Shown: piece after piece, positions 16,064 to 54,066 of the stretch
Numbering within the stretch: position 1 is the stretch's first letter
Layout of the letters: each line of letters starts with the position of its first letter
Source of the DNA: Candidatus Bipolaricaulota bacterium
GTDB lineage: Bacteria; Patescibacteriota; Patescibacteriia; UBA11705; DATKZF01
DNA length: 64,000 bases
Direction of reading: 5' to 3'
Assembly (NCBI GenBank): GCA_035528115.1
Contig: DATKZF010000003.1
Coordinates: 551,089 to 615,088, forward strand
Made by a program: the position numbers and the translations under genes
The notes under the pieces: generated by a model
Databases searched by the model: none
What the model was told of the DNA's origin: nothing
The model's input: the letters and a program-made list of their open reading frames with translations, nothing else

Positions 16064-16199
16064 CTTAATCTAATCCTCCCGTAAACGAAAACGTAAAAAT
16101 CTTTGCGGGAAAATCCCGCTTTTAGTTGTCAAAGTTCACAAAGTCACCATATTATTATATCATATTTAGTCAAAAAAGTCAATATTTGCGTATAAAACA

Positions 16200-18250: not shown

Positions 18251-18257
18251 AAATACA

Positions 18258-28456: not shown

Positions 28457-29038
28457 ATGAAGACGACGTTGATCGTTGTGGCGGCCCTCGTGGTCGCCCT
28501 GGCCGGTTCGGACTCTTTTGCCCGCGGCAGCCGGCCACGCGGTCAGACCCCTCGTGGCCAGACCGTTCGTGGCGGCCAGACCGCCGAGCGCGCGAGCTAC
28601 CGCAACACCCCGCGCGGTCAGTCCCCTCGGGGACAGGTGGCTCGCGGCCGCGCTCCTCGTGGAGAGGTCCGCGGCGGATCCTACCGTCGTGGCGGCGCCT
28701 ACCGCCCGGCGGTGTATGGTCGCGGCGGGGTCGGCTTCCACGTCGAGTTCGGGTTCGGCATTCTGCAGCCCCGGACTGTGTACGTGGCGCCGCAGCCCGT
28801 GGTCGTGGTCTCCGCGTGCTCGTACGATGAGCCGTGGAACTGCGCCCCGGCCGGACCCTTTTCGTTTAGCGGCTCCCACTACTACTACAGCGTCGGCAAC
28901 GGCCTGTGGTACATCGTGGGGCCCAACCCGTTCTTGATCAACAAGAACCCGGGTGGCTACCCCGTCTCGGACAGGTATCTGGTCGAGGCGCGGCGTAGCT
29001 ACCTCATGCATCCGGCTGCTTACGCCGTGGTGCGGTAG
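28457..29038 (+). CDS. Secreted Arg/Gly-rich repeat protein (hypothetical); GC-rich gene
   Basis: Signal peptide MKTTLIVVAALVVALAGSDSFA, PRGQ/RG repeats, and a strong ribosome-binding site (aaggggggaaagg). The composition is strikingly GC-rich compared with the flanking sequence. Confidence 0.5.
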   Translation: MKTTLIVVAALVVALAGSDSFARGSRPRGQTPRGQTVRGGQTAERASYRNTPRGQSPRGQVARGRAPRGEVRGGSYRRGGAYRPAVYGRGGVGFHVEFGFGILQPRTVYVAPQPVVVVSACSYDEPWNCAPAGPFSFSGSHYYYSVGNGLWYIVGPNPFLINKNPGGYPVSDRYLVEARRSYLMHPAAYAVVR

Positions 29039-31166: not shown

Positions 31167-31167
31167 A

Positions 31168-31620
31168 TTACAAATTACGAATAATTGCATCGAATAGGAC
31201 AAGCTTGGTTTAGGTTTATCTGTTTGCTACGAATTGTTGCTTCTATGTAGCTTGCCTTTGCCTTGAAATTACGAATAATTGCATCGAATAGGACAATCTT
31301 GGCTTTGGTTTAGGTGACTTATTACAAATAATTACGAATGAGGCGGGAAAGTTGATGGCTACTTAAAAAGCTAATAAGCTACAACCTATTACAAATAGTT
31401 GCGTCTGGCAGGACAAGCTGTGTTTAGACCTTAACGTTTATTGCGAATAATTACAAATGGTTACGAATTACAATAGACTATTCAGCTTTCAGGTTATTTG
31501 TTACGAATTACAATATTCTCAGGCATAAAGTTATAAGTTAATGTACTTTGTAACAATACAAATAAAGAGCCATTTAGTGAATGTAATTCGTAACGACTCC
31601 CCGGCTTCTCTGTTTCATGC
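31168..31620 (+). repeat. AT-rich tandem repeat array (attacgaataattgcatcgaataggacaagcttgg... and gttacgaattacaat units)
   Basis: Multiple 45- to 110-bp direct repeats that share blocks with arrays at 35900, 54400, 57440 and 60560. Confidence 0.65.
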
Positions 31621-36343: not shown

Positions 36344-38194
36344 ATGAAAAAGAAAGAGCCAAGAGCAAAAATTTTATTAGGCGCTTTATTTTTGAGTATT
36401 GTTTTATTAACAATTGTTTTTTTGTTTCCATCGGGAACTTTTGCCCAGCAAGCGCAACTCGAAGCCGTAGGGCAGCAGGTCGGGTTTTTTGAGCAATCCT
36501 TACCCGTGGTTATCGGTAAAATTATCAGAATAGTCCTTTCAGTGGTCGGCGTTGTCTTGCTCGTTATTGTGATTTACGCCGGATTTTTATGGATGACGGC
36601 CGGAGGCAGTCCCGAACAAATAGAAAAGGCTAAAAAATGGCTGACCAACGGCGTGATCGGCTTGGTCATAATTTTATTTTCTTATTCAATAGTGACCTAC
36701 ATTATCAATCAACTGCTCGATGAAGGCGGCGTTTTCGGTTCGCCATCCACCTATTATGAAGGCTATGGACAAGGCGGCGGCGGCTGGGGAGGCGGCGCGC
36801 TGAGTGAAACAATCGAAGACCATTACCCCGGACGCGACGCGACCAATGTGCCGAGAAATACTTTTATAATGGTTAAGTTTTACGAACCGCTTAATCCTGA
36901 CAGCGTCAGGAGACAAGATACGTCGATGGATTGCGGCGATCAAGGTTACATTTGCGGTACGCTTAATTTCGACAACATAAAAATTTACAGAACCGAAGAC
37001 AGTGAGGAAGGTTCTTTTCCGACCGACTCCGCGACTTTGGTGCGCGGCGGCAAAGCGGCTTTGTCTCCCGATAAAAGAATATTTTTTTTCCAGCCCGATC
37101 CGGTGCTGGGTTCGGATACGGTGGACGTGAACTATTCGGTTTTTTTGACCAATGACATTCAAAAAGAGGATGGCTCCAAGATTTTCAGCAATAATAAAGA
37201 TTACGGTTGGAATTTCACCACGAGCACGGTCATTGATCTGACTCCTCCGCGAGTGGTCAGCGTATTGCCCAGTTCCAATAATCCGGAGTTTGAATTTTTC
37301 GCCAACAGTCTCATTCAAATCAATTTCAACGAACCCGTTTTGCCGCCCGCGGTTTTGAATACGGCCGGATCGGTGGAGGATAAAAGCAATTCCATTTATA
37401 TCGAATATGAAAAAGACGGCGCCGTAGGTTATGTCGAAGGCACATTCAATGTCGGTCTGAACCGATTTAAAACCATGGAATTTTTACCGGCGGCCGATTG
37501 CGAAAACTCCGGGCCCAATTCTTGCGGAGAAATCCCAAAATGCTTGCCCAAAGGCGCGACGATCAAGCCTTATATTCGAGCGGCCAGCGTCAACGCCGAA
37601 GGATTATCGTTCTTCCCGTTTGATGGTTTGGTGGACGCTGCCGGCAATTCGCTCGATGGCAATGCCGATGGGGTCGCGCAAGGACCGGCTGAAGATGATT
37701 ATTCTTGGCAATTTAAAACAGGCAGTATTTTGGATTTGCTGCCGCCGACGGTCAATTCGGTCTCGCCGCAAAACGCGGCCGAAGACCTGCCCGTTGACGT
37801 GGAACTTAAAGCGACGTTTTCCGAAAATCTCAGCGCTTCTTCGGTCAACAGCAGAACAGCTCTTTTGACGGGCGACGATTGGGCGCGCTGGTTCGTGGTT
37901 CATTTCGCGGACACGCCCGCGGGCGAGGACGGTCAGACGATCACCGACAGTTCGACGGTTCAAATCTCTCACGCCGATTTTGACAAAGCGCTGGAAGTGG
38001 AGGAGGGGCAAGAAGCCATTTCATTGAAATATTATCCGGTCTTAACGTCCGGAATAAAGGATTTACAGCAAAATTGTTATCAGCCGTGCAAAGATACTGG
38101 TTCTTGCGCCGGCGCCTTGCCCGGGCAGTCTTGTTGCCCTGATCCGGATTTCAATAATCAAAGACTTGTGCCCGGCTCGACTTGCCCGCAGTAA
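36344..38194 (+). CDS. Pilin-domain surface protein: N-terminal VirB2/TrbC-like (T4SS-pilin-type) domain plus Ig-like (SbsA/Big-type) domains and a Cys-rich C-terminus
   Basis: The N-terminus IIRIVLSVVGVVLLVIVIYAGFLWMTAGGSPEQIEKAKKWLTNGVIGLVIILFSYSIVTYIINQL is homologous to the 16383..16793 pilin. DLTPPRVVSVLPS and DLLPPTVNSVSPQ are Ig-like domain starts. Confidence 0.6.
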   Translation: MKKKEPRAKILLGALFLSIVLLTIVFLFPSGTFAQQAQLEAVGQQVGFFEQSLPVVIGKIIRIVLSVVGVVLLVIVIYAGFLWMTAGGSPEQIEKAKKWLTNGVIGLVIILFSYSIVTYIINQLLDEGGVFGSPSTYYEGYGQGGGGWGGGALSETIEDHYPGRDATNVPRNTFIMVKFYEPLNPDSVRRQDTSMDCGDQGYICGTLNFDNIKIYRTEDSEEGSFPTDSATLVRGGKAALSPDKRIFFFQPDPVLGSDTVDVNYSVFLTNDIQKEDGSKIFSNNKDYGWNFTTSTVIDLTPPRVVSVLPSSNNPEFEFFANSLIQINFNEPVLPPAVLNTAGSVEDKSNSIYIEYEKDGAVGYVEGTFNVGLNRFKTMEFLPAADCENSGPNSCGEIPKCLPKGATIKPYIRAASVNAEGLSFFPFDGLVDAAGNSLDGNADGVAQGPAEDDYSWQFKTGSILDLLPPTVNSVSPQNAAEDLPVDVELKATFSENLSASSVNSRTALLTGDDWARWFVVHFADTPAGEDGQTITDSSTVQISHADFDKALEVEEGQEAISLKYYPVLTSGIKDLQQNCYQPCKDTGSCAGALPGQSCCPDPDFNNQRLVPGSTCPQ

Positions 38195-38240
38195 TTATAA
38201 TTTCAAAAAAGTTTATCGATAGTGTAATTCGTCAAGGAAA

Positions 38241-41200
38241 ATGAAAACGTTTTTCAAAAACAAAAAAGTTCTTGTCATGCTGATCGCCTTTGTCGGGTTT
38301 TTGATTTGTTTTAATTTCGCGGCCGCGCAGTTTGACACGGGCTTGCAAACCGTGGGCGAGCAGGCCGGCATCGGAGCGACCACGGACGTCAGAGTGGCGA
38401 TCGCCAGAATCATCAGAACCGCTTTCGGTTTTCTGGGAGTGGTCGCGGTCGCCTTGGTCATTTATGGAGGATTTTTATGGATGACCGCCGGCGGAGACGC
38501 CGATAAAGTTACCAAAGCCAAAAAAGTGCTGGTCAACGCGTTTATAGGTTTGGCCATTATTCTTTTGGCTTTTTCGATCACCTCTTTTATCATCAACAGT
38601 TTGCAAGAAGCTGTTTTGGGTCAGCCGGGAGAATACGAATATGACGGCGGAGATGGAGGCGGCCCGAGCTCGTCGAGTTGCGGTTTTACGCCAAAGAGCG
38701 TTCAGCCGATCGGCGCGGTTTCTCTCAGAAATATTGTCGTGCGCGCGACCTTCAATGAAACCTTGGACGCAAATCTGGACGAACAAACATTGAAAAACAA
38801 TTTTGTCATTACCGATAAAGCGACCGGACAGACAGTCGACGGCGCGATCAGCGTCAATGGAAAAATTCTAGAATTCGAACCGAGCGCCGCGTGTCCCGAA
38901 CCCAATCAAGAAAGACACTGCTTTGACGCGGATACGATTTACAACGTGCAAATTCTGGCGGGCATAAAAAATAATCAGGGACAAGCTCGATCTTGCTGTC
39001 TGGGCAGCGTTTGTACCGCGGAATTTTCTTCCGGCAATTTAATCGATGTCGAGAATCCGACAATCAACATAATTTCGCCATACAACGGCCAGCAAATCAG
39101 CGAAAATATCATTTTCCCGCTTCAAGCTTTGACTCATGACGACAGTGGCGTGTCCATCGTGGAGTTTTTCGTTGACAAAAATTCGGCGGGAGCGGTTTCC
39201 CCGAGCGAAATTTCACCTAATTACAACGCCCAAGTCGATTGGGATAATTCGGGCTTTGAGCTTGGCTTGCACAGAATAGACGCCCGCGTTTTTGATCTGG
39301 ATTCCAATAAAACCGACGCGGCGTCCAAGCAAGTCAAAATTTTAGCAGAGCATTGTTTTAATTTGAGTCAAGATTTCGACGAAACGGGCATTGATTGCGG
39401 GGGCGCGGATTGCGGAGTTTGCGACGGTGAAGAATGCGACGGCGATCTGGATTGCGCCAGCGGCGTTTGCGTTGACAGTGTGTGCGTCAATTATCCGACC
39501 ATCACCGCTTTATCCAATGTTGAAGGAGCGATCGGCAACATGATTACGATCTGGGGTTATAATTTCGGCGAATATCAAAGCGGGGCCAGCAAAGTTGAAT
39601 TCACCGGTCCCAAACAAAGTTTGATCTCAGCCGAATTTTCCTGCGGCGCCGAGGGTTCCACTTGGTCCGAGCACAGCGTGGTGGTCAAGGTTCCGGAAGG
39701 TTCCGTTGACGGTCCGATAAAATTAACCAATGTTGACGGATACTGGGACAATACTGCAAACGATCGAGGCTTTTTGGGAGATTTTGTCATTAATCCCGAT
39801 CTTTTCTGGCCGGGCTTGTGCAGCGTCGTCAATCCGGACGGCAGGGCACTCGGCGAGTATGAAGATTCGGTGCTGGCTACCGGAGAAAACATGGGGCAGT
39901 CCGGCGAAGTCTTGTTCGGGAATATCAAAGCTCAGGTCACGGGCGCTTGGTCGTCTAATTCGATTTCAGGCATCAAGGTGCCCAATGTTTCCCCGAGCAA
40001 CATTTTGGTTAACGTGAAAACGGACGGTCAGCTCAGCAACCCCGTAAATTTTCAAGTGGTCTCTTCCAGCAAATTGCCGGAAATAATTTCGGTTAATCCC
40101 GAGACGGGCGGCATCGGCCAGTACACGACGATTTCGGGTAGAAATTTCGGAGATAATCCCAATTTATATCAAGTTTATTTCATCAATAAATCAAATGACA
40201 GCATCAGAGTGCCGGCCGACTTGAATTTTCCGCCCGAATGCGCGGAGAGCCTCTGGAGCGACACCGAAGTCTTGGTTAAAGTGCCGCAGACAAATTTGTT
40301 GGGCGAATATTCCGTGCAAATGATTGGTCAAGAAGCTCAAAGCAACAAAGTGAATTTTCTGATCTCGGACGCGTCGGCCAGTCCGGGAATTTGCGGGCTT
40401 GATCCGGACAACGGTCCGGTGGGCACATCGGTGAATGTTTACGGCGAAGGTTTTCGAAGCGAAGGAGTTTTAACTTTCAATGAAAATAAAAAGGCTCAAC
40501 AATTAAATTTGACCGCCAATTTGATCGCCACGGGAGTGCCCCCGGCCTCTGTTTCCGGTCCGGTTAATTTCGCGCTTGAAAACTTGATCAGCAACGGCAT
40601 GGTTTTTAATGTAGGCAGCTGCACGTCCGTGTCTTGCGACGCGGGCGATGAATGCTGCGTTGACGGAGTTTGCCGTTTGTCGGGCGCTTGCGAAACGAGT
40701 CTGATCGCGGCCAAGTGCGAGTATTCTTGGATGCTGAGCACGGACAAATTGCCGCTGGTGCCCAGAGTGCTGGAAACCATGTCTTGCGACGACGAGCACA
40801 ATCAGTCGCCGTCTCCGTGGAAAGATTCATCAGACGCTTGTGTCAACGCCTTGATCTCGGCTCAATTCAACATGCCCGTCAAAATGGACGCCATTGCCGA
40901 TAAATTAATTATCAAACGTTGCTCTTTGCAAAATGAAGTTTGCGATTTCAATAAGTGCGGACAGGAAGGCTCGAATTGCGTTTTTGAAATCCCGAGTTCG
41001 ATCGAAACGGCCGGTTCTTTGAGCGATCGATTCGCGGCCATTGTCGAGTCTTTGCCCGGAGGGGGAGATGAGAGCAATTTGATTTCCAATACTTGGCATC
41101 AAGTGACCATCAAAGGCGGGGTTAGCGGCATCAGAGGGGAAAACGACACACCCATGCCGGTCAATTACGTTTGGCAATTCAAGACCAAAGATGGTCCGTG

Positions 41201-44200
41201 CGAGCCGGTCAATGTGATCGTCGAACCGACCGCCGGCATAATTTCAGAATATTTGGGTCAATTGAATTATACGGTTTACGGCCAGGCCGAGAATTGCAAC
41301 ATCCTTAAGACGGGCTTTGATTGGAGCTGGGTGATTGATCGAAATCAAGATAAGGCTTCGATAGAAGACATCTCAAATGACAAATCCCAGGTTACCGGTT
41401 TGGCGGAGACCGAACCGGCCGATCCGGTCGTGGTCAGAGCGTCCACCGTGTCCGTTGATGGGGTGACTCAGCAAGACAGCGCTCCTTTGAAAATTGATTT
41501 TACTGATCCGAAAGTCAAGTCATTCGGTCCGAATTGCCAAGCGGCTTGCGTCAATACCGCTGTCTTCTCGACTTTCAATACTTACATGAACGCGGACTCC
41601 GTAAAAAAGAATTTTCAGATTTTCAAATGTCAGGGACAGCAATGCCTGGGCTTGACCGCAATTTCTCCGAATAATTTTACTTTTGAATATAATGATCTCG
41701 ACAAGACTCTCTGGGTTTTCGGACAAGCCGGCAAAACCCCATATTATTTTTCACCCAACAGCTATTATCGGGTGGTGATCGGCAGCCGATCAGAGAGTTT
41801 AAGCGGCGTCGAGCTTACCGGTTTGAATTTTGACCGCAATGACGACGGCAAAAATGACGCTTTTTCATGGACATTCAAAACAAAAAATGATAATACGCGT
41901 TGCGACTTGGAAACCGCTGTCGTGAATCCTGATTTTTATGAAAGCACCACACAGGGGGAGAAAGTCCAATACCTCGTTTCGGCCAAAGGCACGCCGGATG
42001 AGTGCAACCCCAGCGGCCAGACTTTGAATCCGTTCGAGTTCGATTGGGTTTGGTCGGTATTAAATCCTGGTTCTTGGGTTGTGGCCAGTATCACTCACGC
42101 CTTGCATTCCACCGATTTTCCGAGCGAGATCTGCTCGAGTAATTGTTTGAATCTGGGCAGTGATCCTTTTGCCGCGGTTTGCGGCAACGGCGCGCAGGAA
42201 TACGGCGAGGAATGCGATAATCAAGGAGTGTGCTCGGGAGATGAAGGCACCGATTGTTCTTCCAATGCGGATTGTTCCATTGTTGGAGGAGTCTGCGAGC
42301 CAAAAGACGGGGACGGTTGCAGCATTGATTGTTTGAACGAATCCGTGCCGGCTGTCAGCGACGGGGGATCTTGCGGTAATGGCGTCAGGGAAGGGACGAG
42401 AATAATCGATGGTATAACTTATCATGAAGAATGCGATCCGGCCGTTGATCCGGATATCTGCACCGCCGGTTGCCAATTGGCGGGTTCGGATGTTAGCGGT
42501 TTTGTCTGCGGCAACGGCCAAAAAGAAGCGGGTGAAGATTGCGATGACGGCAATGCTTCAAACGGCGATGGTTGCTCGAATATCTGCTTGTTTGAAGGAT
42601 CGAAATATTCCGTGGCCCAGATTATTGAAACTCCGCTTTGCGGCAATGCCGATGTTGAGCCGGGTGAAGACTGCGATGACGGTAATTTATTGTCCGGCGA
42701 CGGCTGCTCGCCCCGATGTTTGGCCGAAGGCAATGCCGAACAGTGCGGCAACGGCATTATCAATATCGGAGAAAACTGCGATGATGGAAATAATGATTCC
42801 GGCGACGGATGTTCGGCTGTTTGTTTGGCCGAAGGTTCCGACTGGGACATCGGATCTTATTGCGGAAACGGTTTTCCATTGGAAGTCGGCGAAACTTGCG
42901 AAGCCAAGCAAAGCTCGGATTTTCAAGGCTCGCCCAAGCAATTGGTGACCGTCGATGGCAATATCGATCCTTTTATAATGAGCGAGTCCGCGGAAATTAA
43001 AGCGATGACCGATAATTTCGCGGGCACGAGGGTATCCGGCAGCGGCGAGCTGGCTTTTACCAGAACGTTTTGCGAAAGCGTGCCCGTCGAATCTCCGTAT
43101 CCGATTGTCGGACCGACCGGCAGCGATGTCTGTCGCAATTCGGCCATTCAGATTAAATTGAATCAGCAAATCAAACAATCCAGTTTGAGCTCCGGCATCA
43201 GCGTCACCTATGATTGCGGTCAGACTTCATTGCTTTCCAAAATTAAAAAATTAGTCATTAAAAAAATAAAATATCGTTTGGAAATTTTAGCCGTGGCGAA
43301 AATAAAAGTGAAAAATTATTTTGTAAAACCGGCTAATGCTCAGCGAAAAGGCGAAGAAGAAACCTTTACACAGACGACTTTCGAAAGCGTGGTCCTGGAT
43401 TACCACCGGCCGGACAATTCAAATGTTTGGTTGTTGGTTCGGTTCGGATCCAGCTTGGTTTTGGCTACGGTTAATAAAGATAGCGTCAGTCCGGAGGTTT
43501 GGACCGTGGCTGAAAAGTACGCCGAAACCGGCTCGATTGTGCTGATCTCAGGGTTATTGTCCAATACCCCCGATAGTAAAGGCTATTTGCCCATGGCTGT
43601 CGATAATTTGCAAATTATTGAGGCCGAAGAGCCGCCGGCGCTGGGAAGCTCGGGCGTCTGTAAATTGTCGATTAAAAAAATCAGCGTCGTGTATAACGAA
43701 GAATTGAGAGAAAGCTCTATTACCATATTCCCTGATGGTTTGCTCGCGCCAAACACCAAATACACGGTGGACTTTTCCGGTTTGCAAGATCATTGCGGAG
43801 AATCGATCTCCGGCGATATTTTCGAATTCACCACCGGACCGGAGGCTAAGATATGTAAAATGGATTACGTGGAAATCACCCCGGATTATCAAGTGGTGAG
43901 CAAACGTTTTGGCGACGCGGAATACGCGCCCGTGGATTTTCAAGCCAATGCCGGAAGTTATGAGTTGGCTAATTCTTCGCTCAATCCGGTGCCAGGCGTT
44001 TACGCTTGGGATTGGACGTGGAATATGAATTCCGAGCCCGGAGGTTTGGATGTGTCGTTGTTTGATAAAGCCGGAGACGCGACCGGGGCGAATCCCGAGG
44101 ACGATGATCAAAAGAGCCTGCAGACCGGAGTGTCAAACGGCGAAGTCGAAGTGGATGCCATCGCCACCGTGACCGATAGCGAATTCGGCGATTTGGATAA

Positions 44201-45320
44201 AGAATTCGGAGGCGCGGCCAATGTCATCATTTATCTTTGCGAAAATATTTGGACCGGCACTTTGACGGACGGAGGTTTTTGGCGGGACAGCGATTTCGCT
44301 TTCAGGACTTTTTATTGTCGCGACGCGGGCAATCCCGGAGAAACGGATGATTTGCCCAATTTGAAAATAGTTCAGGCGCCGCCGCTCGATATTCCGACTG
44401 ACGCTTGGAGCCAAGACGATAGCGCCGTGCTTCGAGAGTATTTCATGCTCAGAGAAGATAATTTGACGCCGGACGCCATTGCCATGAGAATTTACACCAA
44501 TCCGGAAGGCGTATCTCCGGCCATTTGGTATGATTTGCATGTGCCCAATCCGGGCAGCACTCAGAATATCAGCATTGATTGCTCGACCGAATACAACAAT
44601 AATGCGAAAGCTTGCTATCCCGGCATTCAAGACGGTCGAACCGTCTATTTGTCAGCGGCCAATCAAATTACGGTTTATGTCAATTACGGTTGTTATTTTA
44701 TTCACGGAAAGCAGTATTGCCGTACTTTGGCTGTGGGAGACTCCATTTATCACAATATTTACGTGTTGTCATATAGCGAAAACGCCAATCCGGAAACTTT
44801 ATCCATTTACAGTCAGCTTTTGAATAATTTGAAATTCAATTATTTTGACAGCAGCATGGTCAAGGCCAGCCTGAAGAGAGACACGCAGAGAATGCATGAT
44901 ATTGTTTTCATTCGCAGTTTGATTAAAAATTATATTCAAAAAAACGGTCGTTTGCCTTTGCTCGATGAAACCGGAAGCTATGTGCCGGGCACTTATGTCA
45001 ATGGTCAATCAATCAGCGCTTGGCCGTCTTGGACCACCGTTTTAAGCAACCTCTTGGGTTCTCCCTTGCCGATAGATCCGCAGAACGGATTTAACGGCAC
45101 CTGTCCGGCCAATTACGATCAAGACACTTGTTTCAACGAACAGCTGGACGAAAAGTTTTATAACGAATACGATAAGAGTGTGGCGCAGGTTTACGATTAC
45201 AGTCTGGATCCGGATTCGCCGAGCGGCTATAATCTCTCGGTTAATTTTGAAACGGTAGTGCCCGAAGCCAAGAGATATCCGGCCATTTGTGTTAATTTGC
45301 AGGAGATTGATTGTCATTGA
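38241..45320 (+). CDS. Giant (2359 aa) surface protein: N-terminal VirB2/TrbC-like pilin domain, three IPT/TIG domains, about five Myxococcus-type cysteine-rich repeats, and a large uncharacterised C-terminal region
   Basis: The N-terminus IARIIRTAFGFLGVVAVALVIYGGFLWMTAGGDADKVTKAKKVLVNAFIGLAIILLAFSITSFIINSL is homologous to the other pilin-domain proteins. IPT domains include PTITALSNVEGAIGNMITIWGYNFG. The cysteine-rich repeats are of the form CGNG..E.GE.CDDGN...GDGCS..C. Confidence 0.7.
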   Translation: MKTFFKNKKVLVMLIAFVGFLICFNFAAAQFDTGLQTVGEQAGIGATTDVRVAIARIIRTAFGFLGVVAVALVIYGGFLWMTAGGDADKVTKAKKVLVNAFIGLAIILLAFSITSFIINSLQEAVLGQPGEYEYDGGDGGGPSSSSCGFTPKSVQPIGAVSLRNIVVRATFNETLDANLDEQTLKNNFVITDKATGQTVDGAISVNGKILEFEPSAACPEPNQERHCFDADTIYNVQILAGIKNNQGQARSCCLGSVCTAEFSSGNLIDVENPTINIISPYNGQQISENIIFPLQALTHDDSGVSIVEFFVDKNSAGAVSPSEISPNYNAQVDWDNSGFELGLHRIDARVFDLDSNKTDAASKQVKILAEHCFNLSQDFDETGIDCGGADCGVCDGEECDGDLDCASGVCVDSVCVNYPTITALSNVEGAIGNMITIWGYNFGEYQSGASKVEFTGPKQSLISAEFSCGAEGSTWSEHSVVVKVPEGSVDGPIKLTNVDGYWDNTANDRGFLGDFVINPDLFWPGLCSVVNPDGRALGEYEDSVLATGENMGQSGEVLFGNIKAQVTGAWSSNSISGIKVPNVSPSNILVNVKTDGQLSNPVNFQVVSSSKLPEIISVNPETGGIGQYTTISGRNFGDNPNLYQVYFINKSNDSIRVPADLNFPPECAESLWSDTEVLVKVPQTNLLGEYSVQMIGQEAQSNKVNFLISDASASPGICGLDPDNGPVGTSVNVYGEGFRSEGVLTFNENKKAQQLNLTANLIATGVPPASVSGPVNFALENLISNGMVFNVGSCTSVSCDAGDECCVDGVCRLSGACETSLIAAKCEYSWMLSTDKLPLVPRVLETMSCDDEHNQSPSPWKDSSDACVNALISAQFNMPVKMDAIADKLIIKRCSLQNEVCDFNKCGQEGSNCVFEIPSSIETAGSLSDRFAAIVESLPGGGDESNLISNTWHQVTIKGGVSGIRGENDTPMPVNYVWQFKTKDGPCEPVNVIVEPTAGIISEYLGQLNYTVYGQAENCNILKTGFDWSWVIDRNQDKASIEDISNDKSQVTGLAETEPADPVVVRASTVSVDGVTQQDSAPLKIDFTDPKVKSFGPNCQAACVNTAVFSTFNTYMNADSVKKNFQIFKCQGQQCLGLTAISPNNFTFEYNDLDKTLWVFGQAGKTPYYFSPNSYYRVVIGSRSESLSGVELTGLNFDRNDDGKNDAFSWTFKTKNDNTRCDLETAVVNPDFYESTTQGEKVQYLVSAKGTPDECNPSGQTLNPFEFDWVWSVLNPGSWVVASITHALHSTDFPSEICSSNCLNLGSDPFAAVCGNGAQEYGEECDNQGVCSGDEGTDCSSNADCSIVGGVCEPKDGDGCSIDCLNESVPAVSDGGSCGNGVREGTRIIDGITYHEECDPAVDPDICTAGCQLAGSDVSGFVCGNGQKEAGEDCDDGNASNGDGCSNICLFEGSKYSVAQIIETPLCGNADVEPGEDCDDGNLLSGDGCSPRCLAEGNAEQCGNGIINIGENCDDGNNDSGDGCSAVCLAEGSDWDIGSYCGNGFPLEVGETCEAKQSSDFQGSPKQLVTVDGNIDPFIMSESAEIKAMTDNFAGTRVSGSGELAFTRTFCESVPVESPYPIVGPTGSDVCRNSAIQIKLNQQIKQSSLSSGISVTYDCGQTSLLSKIKKLVIKKIKYRLEILAVAKIKVKNYFVKPANAQRKGEEETFTQTTFESVVLDYHRPDNSNVWLLVRFGSSLVLATVNKDSVSPEVWTVAEKYAETGSIVLISGLLSNTPDSKGYLPMAVDNLQIIEAEEPPALGSSGVCKLSIKKISVVYNEELRESSITIFPDGLLAPNTKYTVDFSGLQDHCGESISGDIFEFTTGPEAKICKMDYVEITPDYQVVSKRFGDAEYAPVDFQANAGSYELANSSLNPVPGVYAWDWTWNMNSEPGGLDVSLFDKAGDATGANPEDDDQKSLQTGVSNGEVEVDAIATVTDSEFGDLDKEFGGAANVIIYLCENIWTGTLTDGGFWRDSDFAFRTFYCRDAGNPGETDDLPNLKIVQAPPLDIPTDAWSQDDSAVLREYFMLREDNLTPDAIAMRIYTNPEGVSPAIWYDLHVPNPGSTQNISIDCSTEYNNNAKACYPGIQDGRTVYLSAANQITVYVNYGCYFIHGKQYCRTLAVGDSIYHNIYVLSYSENANPETLSIYSQLLNNLKFNYFDSSMVKASLKRDTQRMHDIVFIRSLIKNYIQKNGRLPLLDETGSYVPGTYVNGQSISAWPSWTTVLSNLLGSPLPIDPQNGFNGTCPANYDQDTCFNEQLDEKFYNEYDKSVAQVYDYSLDPDSPSGYNLSVNFETVVPEAKRYPAICVNLQEIDCH

Positions 45321-45412
45321 TAAATCATGGATCATGTATCATGTATCATGAAACATGAATCATAAAACATAAAGAACAGAAAGACAGAAAAACAAAGAAA
45401 CAAGGTCGCCGC

Positions 45413-45479
45413 TGTTGTCATCTCGACCGAAGTCGTCCGAAGCCGCGGCGAAGGATGACGAAGCGGAGAGATCTTTTCC
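45413..45479 (+). repeat. GC-rich element, A-C copy (lacks the B module)
   Basis: tgttgtcatctcgacc followed by gaagtcgtccgaagccgcggcgaaggatgacgaagcggagagatcttttcc. Confidence 0.65.
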
Positions 45480-45611
45480 TAAATCTTCGGAATAGACTTC
45501 TCCAGCCCCAATTTCCAGTTTCTAGTTTCCGGTTTCAAATATCAATTCCCCAGTTTCTGATTTCAGGTTTCCGATTACCCATTACTTTTTACTAATAAAA
45601 ATAAAAAATGT

Positions 45612-46277
45612 ATGCCAGAAGCATCAACTAACTCGCCAGCCGCTTCCGAGCAGCCAAAGGATATATTCGCGGAAATAGATCATTCGGCGCCGGTCCCGGC
45701 TTCAAATAGCATGTCTCCCGCGGCGCCGCCCGCCAAAATGGCCGCGCCCGGCAAAGCGAATGGGGGAAAAAAGATTTTAGTCATTTTTTTAATGATCATA
45801 TTTTTGGCGATTGTCATAGTTATCGGATATGTTGTTTATGACAGATATTTGGCTGTGCCGGAAACAGCCGTAACTCCCATAAAAAATCAGATACCGATAG
45901 CGCCTCCAGCGACCCCAACCCCGACGCCGACCCAACCGACGGTTGTGCCGGAGGCGGCCACTGTGGAAACGACAGTTGTTTTGCCGGTGGCCACGCCTTC
46001 CGCCACGGTTAATCAAATTGATACGGATAATGATCGGCTGAGCGATAGCGAAGAAAAGATAATAGGTACGGATCCCGAAGCCGTTGACAGCGACAAGGAC
46101 TCTTTGACGGATTATGAAGAGGTTAAAATATATAAGACGGATCCGCTGGATCCGGATTCGGATGATGACGGTTATAAAGACGGCGAGGAAGTTTCCGGCG
46201 GTTATGATCCTCTAAATCCCGCCGCCGGCGCCAAGTTGTCCGGATTGCCGTCGGTTTTACCTTCAGCCGTTGAATAA
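45612..46277 (+). CDS. Membrane-anchored protein with thrombospondin type-3-like Ca-binding repeats
   Basis: TM helix, a PT-rich linker, then DTDNDRLSDSEE, DSDKDSLTDYEE and DPDSDDDGYKDGEE repeats. Confidence 0.5.
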   Translation: MPEASTNSPAASEQPKDIFAEIDHSAPVPASNSMSPAAPPAKMAAPGKANGGKKILVIFLMIIFLAIVIVIGYVVYDRYLAVPETAVTPIKNQIPIAPPATPTPTPTQPTVVPEAATVETTVVLPVATPSATVNQIDTDNDRLSDSEEKIIGTDPEAVDSDKDSLTDYEEVKIYKTDPLDPDSDDDGYKDGEEVSGGYDPLNPAAGAKLSGLPSVLPSAVE

Positions 46278-46316
46278 ATAATTGGGGAGGGAAGAATATA
46301 CATAATTTAGAATACT

Positions 46317-47351
46317 ATGACACCAAACAATATTGATGAAGAAATTCACGTCATGCCCAAATCATCGGGGATTCACACCGTCAGTCCCTCCAGTCCGGCG
46401 GCCATGCCGCCGCGAGCGACCGCTCCGGTCTCATCCATGGACAAACCGACGTTGGAAGAGCCCAAAGGGTCAAAGGGTTGGACCAAGGCCGTATTGGCTA
46501 TTTTATTGGTGGCTCTGCTGGCCGCGTCCGGATATTTTCTTTATAGCGCTTATATGCCTAAAGAAGAAAATACCGCGACCAATACGCAAAATGAACAAGC
46601 GACGGAGCAACCAACCGCTGTTTTTCCCGCGACATCCGAGATTATTGAACCGGCAACCACTCCGGCCACGAAAGAGAGCGTAATTTCTCCGGCTACGAGC
46701 GAAGCGCTGCCGGAAATAATGATCGGCTCGAGGAATGATTTTGATTATGGAGCGACCGGCGACTTGAAGCTTGATATGGCTTATTCCCAAGACAGCGATG
46801 GCGACAAACTGACCGATCAAGAGGAAAAATTGTTCGGCACGGGGGTGCAGAACATTGATTCGGATTCGGACGGTTATTCCGATGGCGATGAAGTGGCTAA
46901 TTTATACAGTCCAAAGGACGCTGACGGGAAATTGCTCAAAGACACCAATTCGGTCAAAACGTACGTTAATGATAATTACGATTACACCGTTTTATATCCG
47001 GCGTCTTGGTTCGCCAAAGGCACTGACAAATCCGACTTGGAAGTTGTTTTTTCTTCCGATAACGGCGAGTTCGTGTCCGTTTGGGTTGAAGAAAACATCG
47101 GTCGATTGTCTCTTTCCGATTGGTACAAAAAACAAGCGCCCGAAGCGAATCTTGATGATTTGACCGAATTCGGTAATAAAAACGGGTTGTCCGGTTTGAT
47201 GAGCCCTGACGGTTTCACCGCGTATTTCGTCAAAGACGGATTCGTTTATATCGTTCATTACAATATCGGTTTGAAAGATCGGGCGGATTATCCGAACGTG
47301 TTCAAATTGATGATCGAAAGTTTTAATTTTATAGTTAGCGAAAGAGGATGA
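46317..47351 (+). CDS. Paralogous membrane-anchored TSP3-repeat protein with an extra C-terminal domain
   Basis: TM helix, then DSDGDKLTDQEE and DSDSDGYSDGDE repeats. Confidence 0.5.
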   Translation: MTPNNIDEEIHVMPKSSGIHTVSPSSPAAMPPRATAPVSSMDKPTLEEPKGSKGWTKAVLAILLVALLAASGYFLYSAYMPKEENTATNTQNEQATEQPTAVFPATSEIIEPATTPATKESVISPATSEALPEIMIGSRNDFDYGATGDLKLDMAYSQDSDGDKLTDQEEKLFGTGVQNIDSDSDGYSDGDEVANLYSPKDADGKLLKDTNSVKTYVNDNYDYTVLYPASWFAKGTDKSDLEVVFSSDNGEFVSVWVEENIGRLSLSDWYKKQAPEANLDDLTEFGNKNGLSGLMSPDGFTAYFVKDGFVYIVHYNIGLKDRADYPNVFKLMIESFNFIVSERG

Positions 47352-50863: not shown

Positions 50864-51021
50864 AGGAAAGAAATTTCTAAAGCGAGGCAAAGGCCTTAAA
50901 ACAAAAGTTACATTTTTTTTGTGAGGAAGACTAAAAAAGTGCCGGCTCGGGCGTGGGCGCTGAATTTAAGTCTTCTTTATTTCCCCCAAAAACCTTTAAC
51001 CCTATTATTATTCCCACTATT

Positions 51022-53103
51022 ATGCCTTACGAAGACAATAAAATTCTTCAAATTCGCAAAAGAGACGATCGCATCGTGGATTTTTATCCGGAAAAAATCA
51101 CCGCGGCCATTTTTAAGGCCATGAAAGCGGTGGACGAGGGCAGTCAGGAGCTGGCCGATCGTTTGTCTGACGACGTGATGGAGAAATTGAACAAAAGGTT
51201 TCATGAACGCTCCATTCCGGCCGTGGAAGAAATTCAGGATATTGTCGAAGAGGTCATGATGTCCAACAACTTGTTCAAGACGGCCAGAGCTTACATCATT
51301 TATCGCGATCAGCATTCGAAAATGCGCGAAATAAAGTCCATGATCAATTCGGATGAATTGATGGAAAGCTATTTGAAAAAAGTGGATTGGCGGGTCAAAG
51401 AAAACAGCAACATGGATTATTCATTGCAAGGATTGAATAATTACGTGGCCTCGACCATCAGCTCGCATTATTGGTTGAATAAAATATATCCTCCTCAAAT
51501 AAGAGACGCGCACGTCAACGGCGATTTTCATATTCATGATTTGCAATTGCTTTCCGCTTATTGCGTGGGTTGGGATTTGCGGGATCTTTTAATCAGGGGC
51601 TTTGGCGGAGTTCACGGCAAGGTAGCCAGCTCTCCGGCCAAACATTTGAGCACCGCGCTGGGACAGTTGGTGAATTTCTTTTATACTTTGCAAGGTGAAT
51701 CCGCGGGCGCTCAAGCGATTTCCAGTTTTGATTTGTTTTTGGCGCCGTTTATCAGATATGACGGCTTGGATTTCAAAGGCGTCAAGCAACAGCTTCAGAA
51801 TTTCCTTTTTAACATGAATGTGCCGACCAGGGTGGGTTTTCAGACGCCATTCACCAATATCACGCTTGATTTGTTCGTGCCGGGCAACATGGCGGAGGAG
51901 CCGGTCATTATCGGCGGCAAGCCTCAGCGGGAAACATACAAAGAATTTCAAAAAGAAATGGACCTGTTCAATGAGGCGCTGGTGGAAGTGATGCTCGAAG
52001 GCGACAGCCGCGGACGAGTGTTCGCTTTCCCGATTCCGACTTACAATGTCAGCAAAAACTGGGATTGGGAGTCGACCATCATTGATCGCATCATGGAAAT
52101 CACGGCGAAATACGGCATTCCTTATTTTTCGAATTTCATCAACAGCGACATGAATCCGGAAGACGCCAGATCCATGTGTTGCCGTTTGCGTCTGGACAAT
52201 CGTGAATTGCAAAAGCGCGGCGGAGGACTTTTCGGCGCCAATCCGCTGACGGGATCGATCGGCGTGGTGACTTTGAACATGGCCAGAATCGGCCATACGG
52301 CCAAAAGCAAAGAGGCGTATTTTCAAAGAGTCGCGGAGCTGATGGATTTGGCCAAAGACAGTTTGAAAATCAAAAGAGATGTTTTGGAAAGATTCACCGA
52401 AGGCGGGCTTTACCCGTATTCCAGATATTATTTGTCCTCGGTGAAGGAGCGATTCGGTTATTTTTGGAAAAATCATTTCAATACCATCGGCCTTAACGGC
52501 GTCAACGAAGCTTGTAAAAATCTTTTGGGAGAAGATATTACCGGTCCGGAAGGCCATAAATTCGCCACGCAGATACTTGATTTCATGAGAGAGCGAATTC
52601 ATCAGTATCAATTGGGCGGTTCGGATTTGTACAATCTGGAAGCCACGCCGGCCGAGGGCACGTCGTATCGGTTCGCCAAAATCGACAAAGAAAAATATCC
52701 GAACATCATTTGCGCCAATGAAAAAGATTATTGCGAAAAAGGCGCTGAGCCTTATTACACCAATTCCACCCAGTTGCCCGTGGATTACACGGAAGACATG
52801 TTGGAAGCGTTGAAAATTCAAGATGATCTGCAGACCAGATATACGGGCGGCACGGTTTTTCACGGATTTATAGGTGAGCGAATGCCGTCGATTGAAGCCA
52901 CGAAAAATTTGGTGAAAAAAATCGCGGAGACATTTCATTTGCCGTATTTCACCATCACGCCGACATTCAGCGTCTGCCCCCAGCACGGCTATTTGTCAGG
53001 GGAACATGAGTATTGTCCGAAGTGCGATGAAGAAATGGGCTATTTGGAAAGTCCGTTGATCGATTGGAGCGGTGAAAAAAAAGCTGAAAAAACGGAAAAT
53101 TAA
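51022..53103 (+). CDS. nrdD: Anaerobic ribonucleoside-triphosphate reductase (class III) catalytic body with N-terminal ATP-cone
   Basis: ATP-cone (ILQIRKRDDRIVDFYPEKITAAIFKA), the NrdD barrel, and a C-terminal Cys/His cluster CPQHGY...CPKCDEE. The tail EEMGYLESPLIDWSGEKKAE is a degenerate glycyl-radical-like motif. Confidence 0.75.
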   Translation: MPYEDNKILQIRKRDDRIVDFYPEKITAAIFKAMKAVDEGSQELADRLSDDVMEKLNKRFHERSIPAVEEIQDIVEEVMMSNNLFKTARAYIIYRDQHSKMREIKSMINSDELMESYLKKVDWRVKENSNMDYSLQGLNNYVASTISSHYWLNKIYPPQIRDAHVNGDFHIHDLQLLSAYCVGWDLRDLLIRGFGGVHGKVASSPAKHLSTALGQLVNFFYTLQGESAGAQAISSFDLFLAPFIRYDGLDFKGVKQQLQNFLFNMNVPTRVGFQTPFTNITLDLFVPGNMAEEPVIIGGKPQRETYKEFQKEMDLFNEALVEVMLEGDSRGRVFAFPIPTYNVSKNWDWESTIIDRIMEITAKYGIPYFSNFINSDMNPEDARSMCCRLRLDNRELQKRGGGLFGANPLTGSIGVVTLNMARIGHTAKSKEAYFQRVAELMDLAKDSLKIKRDVLERFTEGGLYPYSRYYLSSVKERFGYFWKNHFNTIGLNGVNEACKNLLGEDITGPEGHKFATQILDFMRERIHQYQLGGSDLYNLEATPAEGTSYRFAKIDKEKYPNIICANEKDYCEKGAEPYYTNSTQLPVDYTEDMLEALKIQDDLQTRYTGGTVFHGFIGERMPSIEATKNLVKKIAETFHLPYFTITPTFSVCPQHGYLSGEHEYCPKCDEEMGYLESPLIDWSGEKKAEKTEN

Positions 53104-53135
53104 TAATTTAAATAAAAAATAATTAAAATAAAAAT

Positions 53136-53282
53136 ATGGCTTCACAAAAGCTCGAGAGAACGAAATGTGAAATTTATACTCGCGTGGTCGGGTATCTTAG
53201 CCCGGTGCAACGTTGGAACAAAGGTAAAAAAGCGGAGTTTGCCGATAGAAAAATGTACGACGCGACATTGTCAAAATAGCGG
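53136..53282 (+). CDS. Stand-alone NrdD-type glycyl-radical tail peptide (48 aa)
   Basis: MASQKLERTKCEIYTRVVGYLSPVQRWNKGKKAEFADRKMYDATLSK contains the canonical NrdD C-terminal RV.GY...WN.GK..E...R motif. It is a separate frame starting 32 nt after the nrdD stop and is not in the supplied ORF track (below 60 aa). Confidence 0.5.
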
Positions 53283-53361
53283 GGAGTCCCGTTACCATGA
53301 GCCTGTCAGGCTCCAATGGATTTAAGGCCGCGGCAAGCGGTCTTAAGTTTTTCATAGAGAT

Positions 53362-54066
53362 ATGATGAAAATCGGCGGCATGCAAACCTTAACCTTAATT
53401 GATTACCCCGGCGCGGTGGCGGCGACGATTTTTTTGCTGGGTTGCAATCTGCGTTGTCATTTCTGCCACAATCCCGAGCTGGTCTTGGGCGATGAGGCCG
53501 CTGAAAAACTCAATGCCAAAGAAATTTTCGATTTTTTGCAAAGCCGGCGCGAGTTTTTGGAAGGAGTCTGCATTACTGGCGGCGAGCCGACCATATGGCG
53601 GGATCTGCCGGATTTTATCGATAAAATAAAAGAAATGGGTTTTAAGGTGAAACTCGACACCAATGGCACGAATTACAAAATGCTCGGCGATTTGATCAAT
53701 CAAAAGAAAATCGATTACGTGGCCATGGATATCAAGGCGCCGTGGGACAAATACGAACAGGTCGTCGGGCGCAAAGTAAACATTGTTCAAATTAAAAAAA
53801 GCGCGCATTTATTGTTATCCGGCAGTGTGGATTATGAGTTTCGCAGTACGGTTTTGCCGGTCTTGCACAAGAAAGAAGACTTGATCGCCATGGCTCGGCA
53901 GATCAAAGGAGCCAAGCGTTACTATTTACAACAATTCAAACCATTTGCTAAAATGGTAGATAAGGAATACAAAAACGCGGTGTCATACAAAAGCGTTGAT
54001 TTGCAAAAAATAAAAAATCAAATAAAACAGTGGTTTGAAGTTTGTCAGATCAGAGAAAATTTATAA
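53362..54066 (+). CDS. nrdG: Anaerobic ribonucleotide reductase activating protein (radical SAM)
   Basis: CNLRCHFCHN radical-SAM cluster motif and GGEPT. Confidence 0.8.
   Translation: MMKIGGMQTLTLIDYPGAVAATIFLLGCNLRCHFCHNPELVLGDEAAEKLNAKEIFDFLQSRREFLEGVCITGGEPTIWRDLPDFIDKIKEMGFKVKLDTNGTNYKMLGDLINQKKIDYVAMDIKAPWDKYEQVVGRKVNIVQIKKSAHLLLSGSVDYEFRSTVLPVLHKKEDLIAMARQIKGAKRYYLQQFKPFAKMVDKEYKNAVSYKSVDLQKIKNQIKQWFEVCQIRENL

Follow-up and report, generated by a model that had tools for sequence, protein, structure and literature searches.

A cysteine-rich block in the middle of a giant Patescibacteria protein probably serves as a stalk segment rigidified by disulfides and Ca2+, built from modules of the TIGR02232/DUF4215 type, in what is possibly an adhesin. 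The giant, of 2359 aa, is encoded at positions 38241..45320 of the window, as the whole analysed stretch of 64,000 nucleotides is called here, and was delineated from the ORF list, its translation and Pfam; this gene and all other features described below lie on the + strand. The block occupies aa 1314-1554 (nt 42180-42902), a span enclosed by the interval 42170-42910 that an initial annotation had marked, and the six peptide strings quoted there were all found verbatim in frame +1 of ORF 38241..45320.

Architecture of the giant protein

From N- to C-terminus, the giant consists of a signal peptide, a VirB2-like anchor, Ig-like/TIG domains, the Cys-rich repeats, further Big_5 domains and an unannotated C-terminal part, with Pfam matches to Big_5, TIG (four), Big_7, T4SS_pilin and DUF4215. 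An identical protein sequence is already public, and at least 341 homologues were found. The membrane-anchor domain, of the T4SS_pilin (VirB2/TrbC-like) type, spans aa 54-117 (38400..38591) and scored 28.2 bits with PF18895 (cut-off 26.6); it is preceded by a signal-peptide-like N-terminus (aa 1-30), and two hydrophobic helices (aa 50-81 and 96-118) can be read from the sequence, all of which bears out the earlier description of the protein as pilin-anchored. The model NF045849 scored below its own cut-off on the same anchor. Residues 1-135 of the giant share 41% identity with the N-terminus of the 616-aa protein encoded immediately upstream. Judging by the topology suggested by the signal peptide, the T4SS_pilin anchor and the Big_5, Big_7 and TIG domains, the giant is predicted to be a surface or extracellular protein. 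A pseudopilin-like head was considered for its C-terminal ~200 aa and rejected, Pfam giving only a chance match (E 0.31) and PDB sequences only chance-level ones. The small genome assumed for the organism agrees with contigs of 604-763 kb, while its characterization as AT-rich was overstated, the GC content of the window being 45%.

Anatomy of the repeat block

The 241 residues of the block hold six CGNG-type units, namely three canonical, one canonical but split by an insert, one degenerate and one N-terminal half, with a C-terminal half lying ahead of the block. The motif CGN[GA] starts at aa 1314, 1378, 1423, 1467, 1502 and 1541 (nt 42180, 42372, 42507, 42639, 42744 and 42861, respectively) and was found nowhere else in the giant. 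The repeats reported initially, estimated as about five, are thus real, but they number six, and the first is complete although it had been quoted in truncated form, since it resumes past a 27-aa insert as KDGDGCSIDC. The tandem arrangement was likewise confirmed, though not its strict periodicity: because the start-to-start spacing is irregular (64, 45, 44, 35 and 39 aa, hence 35-64 aa), the block is a series of tandem modules rather than a strictly periodic array. Tandem Repeats Finder detected no repeat in the block at the DNA level, and R3-R5 differ from one another at synonymous sites.

The C-terminal half repeat ahead of R1, CSSNCLNLGS (aa 1298-1307, 42132..42161), corresponds to positions 25-33 of a family-specific HMM, and its motif is kept as xxCxxxCLxxGS in a 21-sequence alignment. 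R1 (aa 1314-1367, 42180..42341; second part DGDGCSIDCLNE) is a canonical repeat split by a nested insert; the family HMM gave 8.5 and 10.9 bits for its two halves, and in silico removal of the insert yielded 29.1 bits with TIGR02232 (cut-off 20.8). The insert itself, GVCSGDEGTDCSSNADCSIVGGVCEPK (27 aa, aa 1329-1355, 42225..42305), delimited by homologue alignment, contributes four extra Cys. Among the seven closest homologues of the giant it is shared only by P0004, and the R1 site is an unbroken canonical repeat in the orthologues P0002, P0003, P0005, P0006 and P0007; comparable inserts occupy the same intra-repeat loop in other repeats of P0009, P0018, P0022 and P0087. The degenerate R2 (38 aa, aa 1378-1415, 42372..42485) gave no HMM match when scanned alone and was placed by its position in the alignment, where it matches the canonical repeats of P0006 and P0007 column by column, with the four Cys conserved. 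The three canonical units follow: R3 (aa 1423-1453, 42507..42599), R4 (aa 1467-1497, 42639..42731) and R5 (aa 1502-1532, 42744..42836), which scored 45.6, 49.0 and 46.9 bits with TIGR02232 (E 4.4e-12, 3.8e-13 and 1.7e-12) and 26.2, 27.7 and 31.6 bits with DUF4215, respectively. Finally, the N-terminal half repeat R6, CGNGFPLEVGETCE (aa 1541-1554, 42861..42902), closes the block; scanned alone it had no TIGR02232 match and reached 3.4 bits over positions 1-14 of the family HMM, being recognised by position. Each of the seven closest homologues keeps it, as does the 21-sequence consensus, and it is followed by a conserved GSPxQLxTV segment.

Membership of the TIGR02232/DUF4215 family

The initial assignment to the Myxococcus-type cysteine-rich repeats was upheld by HMM search. 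TIGR02232 (myxo_disulf_rpt) scored 80.3 bits on the whole giant against a cut-off of 20.8, and each of R3, R4 and R5 taken singly exceeded twice this cut-off (E 4e-12 to 4e-13). With PF13948 (DUF4215), whose gathering score is 27, R4 and R5 were above the threshold, R3 was below it, and the whole giant was slightly under it (25.5 bits). The four conserved Cys and the acidic core (E.CDDGN...GDGC) of the canonical unit, of about 33-38 residues, can be read in R3-R5 and in R1 minus its insert; R2 and R6 lack this combined feature. On these profile matches and motifs, the units of the block are assigned to the TIGR02232/DUF4215 family, of which the block is an ordinary further case. It shares with the described 'Myxococcus cysteine-rich repeat' (TIGR02232, PF13948, IPR011936) the consensus CG[ND]G..E.GE.CDDGN...GDGCS..C, the tandem arrangement and a large secreted or surface host, but differs from the usual hosts in belonging to a Big_5/TIG giant of Patescibacteria with a VirB2-like anchor, and from the usual arrays in its nested Cys-rich insert, degenerate unit and bracketing half repeats.

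Across 141 repeats from 120 homologues, positions C3, G4, E12, C14, D15, D16, N18, D23, G24, C25, C29, E32 and G33 are invariant or nearly so; only Cys, Gly and O-donor residues are near-invariant, and the remaining positions are free and highly variable, a pattern that fits a structural role. About 45,000 protein clusters make up the family. The literature searched yielded no experiment on a DUF4215 repeat, and its functional statements amount either to 'function unknown' or to speculation about rigidity or attachment.

Such repeats had already been noted in CPR bacteria. Large Cys-rich extracellular proteins of this group were noted in 2016 to bear a weak similarity to repeat-containing proteins of Myxococcus as well as pappalysin-1 (PMC4736985). 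These Peribacteria proteins (Anantharaman et al., 2016) likewise come from CPR organisms with small genomes, are large, exported and Cys-rich, and were proposed to act in rigidity or attachment. They represent, however, a different CPR lineage and are signal-peptide proteins of a 14-gene cluster for which a VirB2-like anchor was not described; moreover, their similarity to Myxococcus repeats was 'very weak', whereas the present block has three canonical units.

Predicted fold of the repeat unit

The structural reading of the block rests on its likeness to the M3 domain of human PAPP-A. When a profile of the repeat was compared with PDB sequences, positions 2-32 matched residues 866-898 of PAPP-A, and also PAPP-A2, with an E-value of ~7e-7 (32 bits); the block used as a single sequence matched nothing in the same database, so that PAPP-A was found only with the repeat profile. 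The M3 domain of PAPP-A and PAPP-A2 (PDB 7UFG, 8A7D, 7Y5N, 8HGG and 8SL1) contains one bona fide copy of the same repeat, although the authors of the PAPP-A structure reported no known sequence similarity for it (PMC9579167). In their account M3 is a 'smaller domain of coils and strands' that lies between beta-sandwiches, and two Ca2+ were modelled in it (PMC9579167); these ions were assigned to a domain of 52 residues, the repeat has 33, and both need not sit in the repeat. The disulfides mapped in the repeat stretch of PAPP-A, C867-C895 and C880-C891 (PMC9780223, Table 1), are nested. M3 would resemble the predicted unit in its coils and strands, two nested disulfides, modelled Ca2+ and position as a connector of larger beta-sandwich domains; it differs in being a single copy in an animal metalloproteinase, whereas the units described here are arrayed in tandem within a giant bacterial surface protein.

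An AlphaFold model of the R4-R5 di-repeat (pLDDT 91.8; one of five models was confident, the others reaching 53-61) has hardly any helix or strand, while the model of the whole 305-aa block built with 21 homologues was unusable (pLDDT 47). In a Foldseek search of the PDB with the R4-R5 model, the top 28 of 29 matches were to PAPP-A/PAPP-A2 or ADAM/SVMP proteins; the E-values fell short of significance (best 0.07), owing to an aligned unit of only about 33 residues. The PAPP-A/PAPP-A2 matches superposed with an rmsd of 0.8-1.5 Å, the aligned stretch being 32-34 residues long (21 for one fragment chain), and R4 and R5 were 44-56% identical to PAPP-A/PAPP-A2 in these structural alignments, at an rmsd to the model of about 1 Å. 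Besides autotaxin (5dlt), last in the list, the only other matches were ADAM10, 17 and 22, VAP1, RVV-X and bothropasin.

The disintegrin Ds segment of ADAM/SVMP proteins has, as is predicted for the repeat, an all-turn fold stabilised by disulfides and Ca2+. Its Ca2+-site II, in which the ion is buried and EDTA-resistant, has the consensus XCGN(X)3EXGEXCD (PMC4885070), fitted exactly by the N-terminal halves of R1, R3 and R4; R5 has Asn at the first Glu, and R2 and R6 carry insertions. ADAM17 was also matched by positions 2-17 of the repeat profile (E 0.0036). However, only the N-terminal half of the unit is common to both. The two diverge in the C-terminal half (DDGN...GDGCS..C) and in their Cys pattern, which numbers roughly 14 Cys in the whole disintegrin domain, and Pfam Disintegrin had no match in the block even at E up to 10; because of these differences, the relation is one of resemblance or distant kinship and not of membership.

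By analogy with these relatives, Ca2+ binding and the disulfide pattern of the block can be predicted, and a role as stalk or adhesin suggested. In the canonical 33-residue unit regular secondary structure would be almost absent, and its fold would depend on two nested disulfides (Cys1-Cys4 and Cys2-Cys3) together with one or two buried Ca2+ liganded by the invariant Asn, Glu and Asp residues, both features being predicted by homology. Arranged in series between half repeats, with Ig-like/TIG domains on either side, the units would make up a stiff, protease-resistant stalk segment keeping the unannotated C-terminal ~800 residues at a distance from the cell, while the N-terminal VirB2-like hairpin would tether the giant in the membrane.

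Spacer or binding module

The main alternative, possible but unlikely, is that the block is the business end of the protein, a disintegrin-like or adhesive module binding a host surface, a mineral or a polysaccharide, with specificity given by the variable positions. The high variability of the non-scaffold positions agrees with it, as do the ADAM disintegrin domains among the structural relatives, a diatom adhesive-trail protein with twelve such repeats (10.1101/2023.03.06.531300) and the proposal of attachment for the large, strain-variable Cys-rich extracellular proteins of Peribacteria (PMC4736985). Nevertheless, what the unit has in common with ADAMs is the Ds 'shoulder', a structural, Ca2+-binding element, and the PAPP-A counterpart connects larger domains. 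Copy number argues in the same direction: at least one repeat at ≥20 bits was found in 114 of 120 homologous pilin-anchored Patescibacteria giants (median 4, maximum 14) and none was detectable in the other six, and so wide a range among orthologues (0 to 14) is more in keeping with a spacer than with a defined binding site.

Gene neighbourhood

The giant is one of the four products of a cassette that consistently adjoins ybeY-dagK-ftsA-ftsZ; the other three are a ~600-aa VirB2-anchored protein, a membrane protein with TSP3 repeats and another of ~340 aa. The upstream gene (36344..38194) encodes the 616-aa protein, with a VirB2-like anchor (T4SS_pilin 44.3 bits, TrbC 28.3 bits) and Big_5, and has a counterpart in the same place in three related genomes. 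Downstream, Pfam and translation identified a 221-aa membrane protein with three TSP3_bac repeats of the Ca2+ type (45612..46277) and a second one, of 344 aa, whose TSP3 match is sub-threshold (46317..47351); genes of matching size and kind lie 3' of the giant in the three relatives, in which the gene order around the giant is identical at 34-48% identity. The neighbouring genes for membrane proteins with TSP3-type Ca2+ repeats were taken as support for a surface location. No virB4 was detected among the scanned window ORFs of ≥150 aa, and the neighbourhood of the giant is otherwise housekeeping. As in the VirB2-like pilin arrays surveyed in Patescibacteria (Microb Genom 2025, PMC12102498), genes with an N-terminal T4SS_pilin/TrbC domain stand in tandem, here two consecutive ones with 41% identical anchors; that survey, however, looked for VirB2 homologues as a small protein, often near virB4, whereas in the present case the domain serves as N-terminal anchor to proteins of 616 and 2359 aa.

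A more far-reaching proposal, which we regard as improbable, is that the four genes encode an undescribed surface appendage of one Patescibacteria lineage, in which the VirB2-like domains join together within the membrane or as a short fibre, the Ca2+-rigidified giants act as arms capturing the host and the DUF4215 array sets their reach. As a side proposal, DUF4215 would be the prokaryotic pool ancestral to the Ca2+ modules of PAPP-A M3 and ADAM Ds.

Redox state of the cysteines

It is very unlikely that the Cys coordinate a metal (Zn or Fe-S) or stay reduced, making the block an anaerobe's metal-binding or redox module. The organism does look anaerobic, because it encodes a class III (anaerobic) ribonucleotide reductase as well as a likely activase for it, a radical-SAM protein, suggesting anoxic habitats, and no thiol/disulfide oxidoreductase was seen within the 64-kb window. 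Against this, the genes of CPR bacteria include an MdbA-like oxidoreductase and VKOR, which serve to form disulfides outside the cytoplasm (10.1101/335083), and the homologous PAPP-A unit has its two disulfides mapped. Furthermore, the spacing of the four Cys offers none of the CxxC or CxxH pairs that characterise Zn ribbons, and their invariant partners Asp, Glu and Asn are hard O-donors suited to Ca2+, not His or Cys.

Native conservation of the block

The block is an old, conserved part of the Patescibacteria giant and neither a recent nor a surprising acquisition. In 111 of the 116 homologues with matchable flanks, CGNG-type motifs (regex CG[ND][GAS]) are enclosed by the same homologous flanking segments, and all six units are in register across the seven closest homologues. 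Relative to the nearest homologues, the block is more conserved (54-57% identity) than its flanks (33-52%), and in a single-sequence scan the best genomic match to the repeats was another Patescibacteria MAG (66%). Public annotation of relatives already reads 'cysteine-rich repeat protein' or 'DUF4215 domain-containing protein [Patescibacteria group bacterium]'. With this labelling, the conserved position and the presence of repeats in nearly all homologous giants, the block cannot be called unexpected.

The composition of the block is also native. Its GC content (0.528) is above that of the rest of the gene (0.484) because of its amino-acid composition, the value expected from its residues and the codon usage of the rest of the gene being 0.539; its GC3 (0.514) is within the sliding-window range of the gene and its codon preferences are the same as elsewhere. 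The GC and codon-usage check initially proposed therefore uncovered no anomaly once amino-acid composition was allowed for, and the suggested acquisition or shuffling is at odds with this composition, with the lack of a DNA-level repeat and with the kept position and gene order. A foreign module recently acquired by or shuffled into a native pilin-anchored protein, for example from Myxococcota, is very improbable, since its GC excess is fully accounted for, R3-R5 differ at synonymous sites, the motifs are co-located in homologues, and the gene order is identical in relatives of 34-48% identity, even though Myxococcota and many further phyla are rich in the repeat and multidomain surface proteins do evolve via module shuffling; as a recent event, acquisition is already contradicted. 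Vertical inheritance, with position and gene order kept and composition native, is the best explanation. An ancient modular origin may nonetheless lie behind the block, the ultimate source of the repeat not being traceable by phylogeny from so short a unit with invariant informative columns.

Implications

As originally posed, the finding is of little consequence, the family being catalogued, the block natively conserved and relatives already labelled by public pipelines. Of modest value is the cassette of the giant and its three neighbours, syntenic in four genomes (its own and three relatives) and a candidate host-interaction apparatus of such episymbionts. Of like value for the family, DUF4215, a 'domain of unknown function', gains a structural reading: by homology with PAPP-A M3 and ADAM Ds site II, its unit would combine two nested disulfides with buried Ca2+.

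Anatomy and family assignment of the cysteine-rich repeat block

The whole repeat block lies in a single ORF of 2359 amino acids (38241..45320, + strand), a giant surface protein in which all six repeat peptides quoted in the initial annotation are present verbatim. CGN[GA] starts were found at aa 1314, 1378, 1423, 1467, 1502, and 1541 (nt 42180-42861) and nowhere else in the entire protein, and the block harbors 28 of its 84 cysteines. The proposed assignment to the Myxococcus-type cysteine-rich repeats was confirmed by HMM searches: TIGR02232 (NCBIfam; 'cysteine-rich acidic repeat', myxo_disulf_rpt; cut-off 20.8 bits) scored 80.3 bits against the giant and 45.6, 49.0, and 46.9 bits on the single units R3, R4, and R5 (R1-R6 being numbered from the N-terminus), whereas DUF4215 (Pfam; gathering score 27 bits) gave 26.2, 27.7, and 31.6 bits, respectively. 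These scores and the verbatim peptides thus establish the repeats as real and far above chance, although their number, previously put at about five, has to be corrected to six CGNG units, including split, degenerate, and half ones.

R1 is a genuine repeat, but its earlier version was truncated: a cysteine-rich insert of 27 residues (aa 1329-1355; 42225-42305), a nested mini-module with four cysteines in the R1 loop, precedes the continuation of the unit as ...DGDGCSIDC. With the insert deleted in silico, R1 scored 29.1 bits with TIGR02232, above the cut-off. The six units align in register across the seven closest homologues, five of which have an uninterrupted, canonical R1; within this set, only P0004 shares the insert with the giant. 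Since comparable nested inserts occupy the corresponding loop in other repeats (homologues P0009, P0018, P0022, and P0087), this loop seems to tolerate insertions. R2 gave no HMM signal; its position is occupied by canonical repeats in the homologues P0006 and P0007. R6, which is conserved, represents the N-terminal half of a repeat. Just ahead of R1, a family HMM trained on 138 homologue repeats, query excluded, matched a C-terminal half (CSSNCLNLGS, aa 1298-1307). From N- to C-terminus, the block thus reads C-half, split R1, degenerate R2, R3, R4, R5, and N-half. The repeat spacing is irregular, Tandem Repeats Finder detected no DNA-level repeat, and R3-R5 differ at synonymous sites; the units are old duplications, kept at the protein level.

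Origin and distribution of the repeats

The block had been considered unexpected in this gene and possibly acquired, a view that the comparative data do not support. Codon usage and GC content revealed no foreign signature: the GC content of 0.528 (0.484 in the rest of the gene) is close to the 0.539 predicted from the amino acids of the block and the codon usage of the remaining gene, GC3 (0.514) is within the 0.50-0.62 spanned by the gene, and block and gene prefer the same codons (TGC, GGC, GAT, GAA, and AAT). Among the 120 best homologues (2000-4000 aa, nearly all sharing the anchor), 114 contain at least one repeat of at least 20 bits (median 4, maximum 14), with 297 of 482 repeats located 40-50% of the way along the protein. 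Both flanks were matchable in 116 homologues, of which 111 have CGNG-type motifs (regex CG[ND][GAS]) enclosed by this same flanking homology. Identity to the four nearest homologues is 54-57% in the block and 33-52% in the flanks. Genes around the giant are arranged identically in the window and at the P0002 (48% identity), P0007, and P0022 (34% each) loci: LytR, signal peptidase, HisRS, an 81-aa ORF, YqeY, a ~600-aa T4SS_pilin+Big_5 protein, the giant, a TSP3 protein, a ~340-aa protein, YbeY, DAGK, FtsA, FtsZ, and NrdD/NrdR, with one additional 153-aa ORF straight after the giant in the P0022 locus. Recent acquisition is contradicted by this composition, position, and gene order, which, together with the block identity, show that the gene was inherited vertically and that the block is an ancestral component of it, kept by selection.

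The repeat itself is widespread. A 33-column profile matched 45,264 clusters (50% identity) at E <= 1e-3, 4,486 of them still at E <= 1e-30, with up to 68 matched stretches in some proteins. Scanning species-representative genomes with R3-R6 returned Patescibacteria first (66% identity), followed by Patescibacteria lineages mixed with Myxococcota, Zixibacteria, Binatia, Phycisphaerae, Hydrogenedentes, and one archaeon. Many homologues are named 'cysteine-rich repeat protein' by JGI and one 'DUF4215 domain-containing protein' by NCBI. Large exported cysteine-rich proteins of Peribacteria, weakly similar to Myxococcus repeat proteins and pappalysin-1, have been described (Anantharaman et al. 2016, PMC4736985); literature naming the DUF4215 domain gives its function as unknown throughout. 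Several MAGs with close block matches (loci L004, L006, L019, and L032), one an 886-kb complete chromosome, are labelled 'uncultured Gammaproteobacteria' and are probably mislabelled Patescibacteria.

Predicted structure and role of the repeat unit

Across 141 repeats, the near- or fully invariant columns are four Cys, three Gly, E12, D15, D16, N18, D23, and E32, the rest being variable. The repeat profile matched human PAPP-A and PAPP-A2 (E ~7e-7) over the stretch YCGDGIIQKDQGEQCDDMNKINGDGCSLFCRQE, which corresponds in PAPP-A to M3, a small coil-and-strand domain that lies between beta-sandwiches and was modelled with two Ca2+ (Kobbero et al., PMC9579167); its disulfides are C867-C895 and C880-C891, i.e., C1-C4 and C2-C3 (PMC9780223). 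The N-terminal half of the repeat matches the Ca2+-site II consensus of the ADAM/SVMP disintegrin subdomain Ds, XCGN(X)3EXGEXCD, fitting exactly in R1, R3, and R4; in Ds this Ca2+ is buried and EDTA-resistant (PMC4885070). One of five AlphaFold models of R4-R5, built with 65 homologous di-repeats in the input, reached a pLDDT of 91.8; it is almost devoid of regular secondary structure. For this model, Foldseek ranked PAPP-A and PAPP-A2 first among its PDB matches, at an rmsd of 0.8-1.5 A over 32-34 residues (21 in one fragment chain), with ADAM/SVMP entries alone in the remaining places down to rank 28; the best E-value was 0.07, owing to the shortness of the unit.

From the conservation, the PAPP-A homologue, the ADAM consensus, and the modelled fold, we infer Ca2+ binding and disulfides for the block: each canonical unit would be a mini-domain clamped by disulfides and Ca2+, and the tandem array, which is presumably extracellular, would form a stiff stalk segment of the surface protein. 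CPR bacteria possess MdbA-like/VKOR systems (10.1101/335083), which could form these disulfides. That the block is itself adhesive or ligand-binding is less likely: with ADAMs it has the structural shoulder in common, and the strongly varying number of copies among orthologues favours a spacer. A metal-cluster or reduced-thiol module is improbable, as the invariant partners are O-donors and disulfides are mapped in the PAPP-A unit.

Genomic context of the giant protein

The window (GC 45%) is ordinary chromosome, encoding PPDK, AsnRS/AspRS, ScpAB, ParAB, two RelA/SpoT, TopA, DprA, a Der-Pth fusion, LytR, signal peptidase I, HisRS, FtsA, FtsZ, NrdD with its probable activase, HtrA, RF, and KsgA. 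The NCBI label 'Candidatus Bipolaricaulota bacterium' is probably wrong, since all homologues of the giant (labelled Patescibacteria, Falkowbacteria, Kuenenbacteria, and Uhrbacteria), the gene order, and the 604-763 kb contigs carrying an identical protein indicate Patescibacteria. The two RelA/SpoT homologues (HD_4 + RelA_SpoT + TGS; 16796-19862, - strand) are full-length and in tandem, which is unusual for so small a genome. The GTPase Der/EngA (two MMR_HSR1 and a KH-like domain) is fused to peptidyl-tRNA hydrolase in one ORF (29202-31202, - strand). The anaerobic class III ribonucleotide reductase NrdD with ATP-cone and a nearby radical-SAM protein, probably its activase (both within 50953-54066), imply an anaerobic lifestyle; nrdD of the related locus L084 carries an intein/LAGLIDADG insertion. 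A GC-rich island (14000-16100; 0.59 versus 0.45) encodes a membrane protein whose linker is rich in Ala/Pro/Thr (14325-15074, - strand) and a weakly matched SPFH/Band_7 protein (15074-16063, - strand), its high GC stemming at least partly from amino-acid composition. A small GC-rich ORF (28457-29038, + strand; GC 0.56), whose product carries PRGQ/Arg-Gly-rich repeats and a signal peptide, has no family match, and long ORFs overlapping it on the opposite strand look spurious.

In Pfam, the giant comprises T4SS_pilin (aa 54-117; 28.2 bits versus 26.6), Big_5, Big_7, and four TIG stretches, with further Big_5 matches on either side of the block. Two short cysteine-rich knots, CGGADCGVCDGEECDGDLDCASGVCVDSVC (39396-39485) and CTSVSCDAGDECCVDGVCRLSGAC (40620-40691), flank the TIG region and have no family match. 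The last ~500 residues (from about aa 1866, past the final Big_5; 43836-45317), probably the functional tip, have no Pfam match, and the final 209 gave only chance-level matches to PDB sequences. The giant's anchor recurs in the 616-aa protein encoded upstream (41% identity over aa 1-135, E 5e-24).

A four-gene cassette (36344-47351), consisting of the ~600-aa VirB2-anchored Big_5 protein, the giant, a ~220-aa TSP3-repeat membrane protein, and a ~340-aa membrane protein, adjoins ybeY-dagK-ftsA-ftsZ in this genome as well as, with the order unchanged, in three related ones (34-48% identity; loci L083, L084, and L085). A third small protein with a TSP3_bac Ca2+-type repeat is encoded ~14 kb downstream (61177-61962). 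The cassette may constitute one surface apparatus and, along with the structural interpretation of DUF4215 offered by PAPP-A M3 and ADAM Ds, is a lead of more interest than the block itself.
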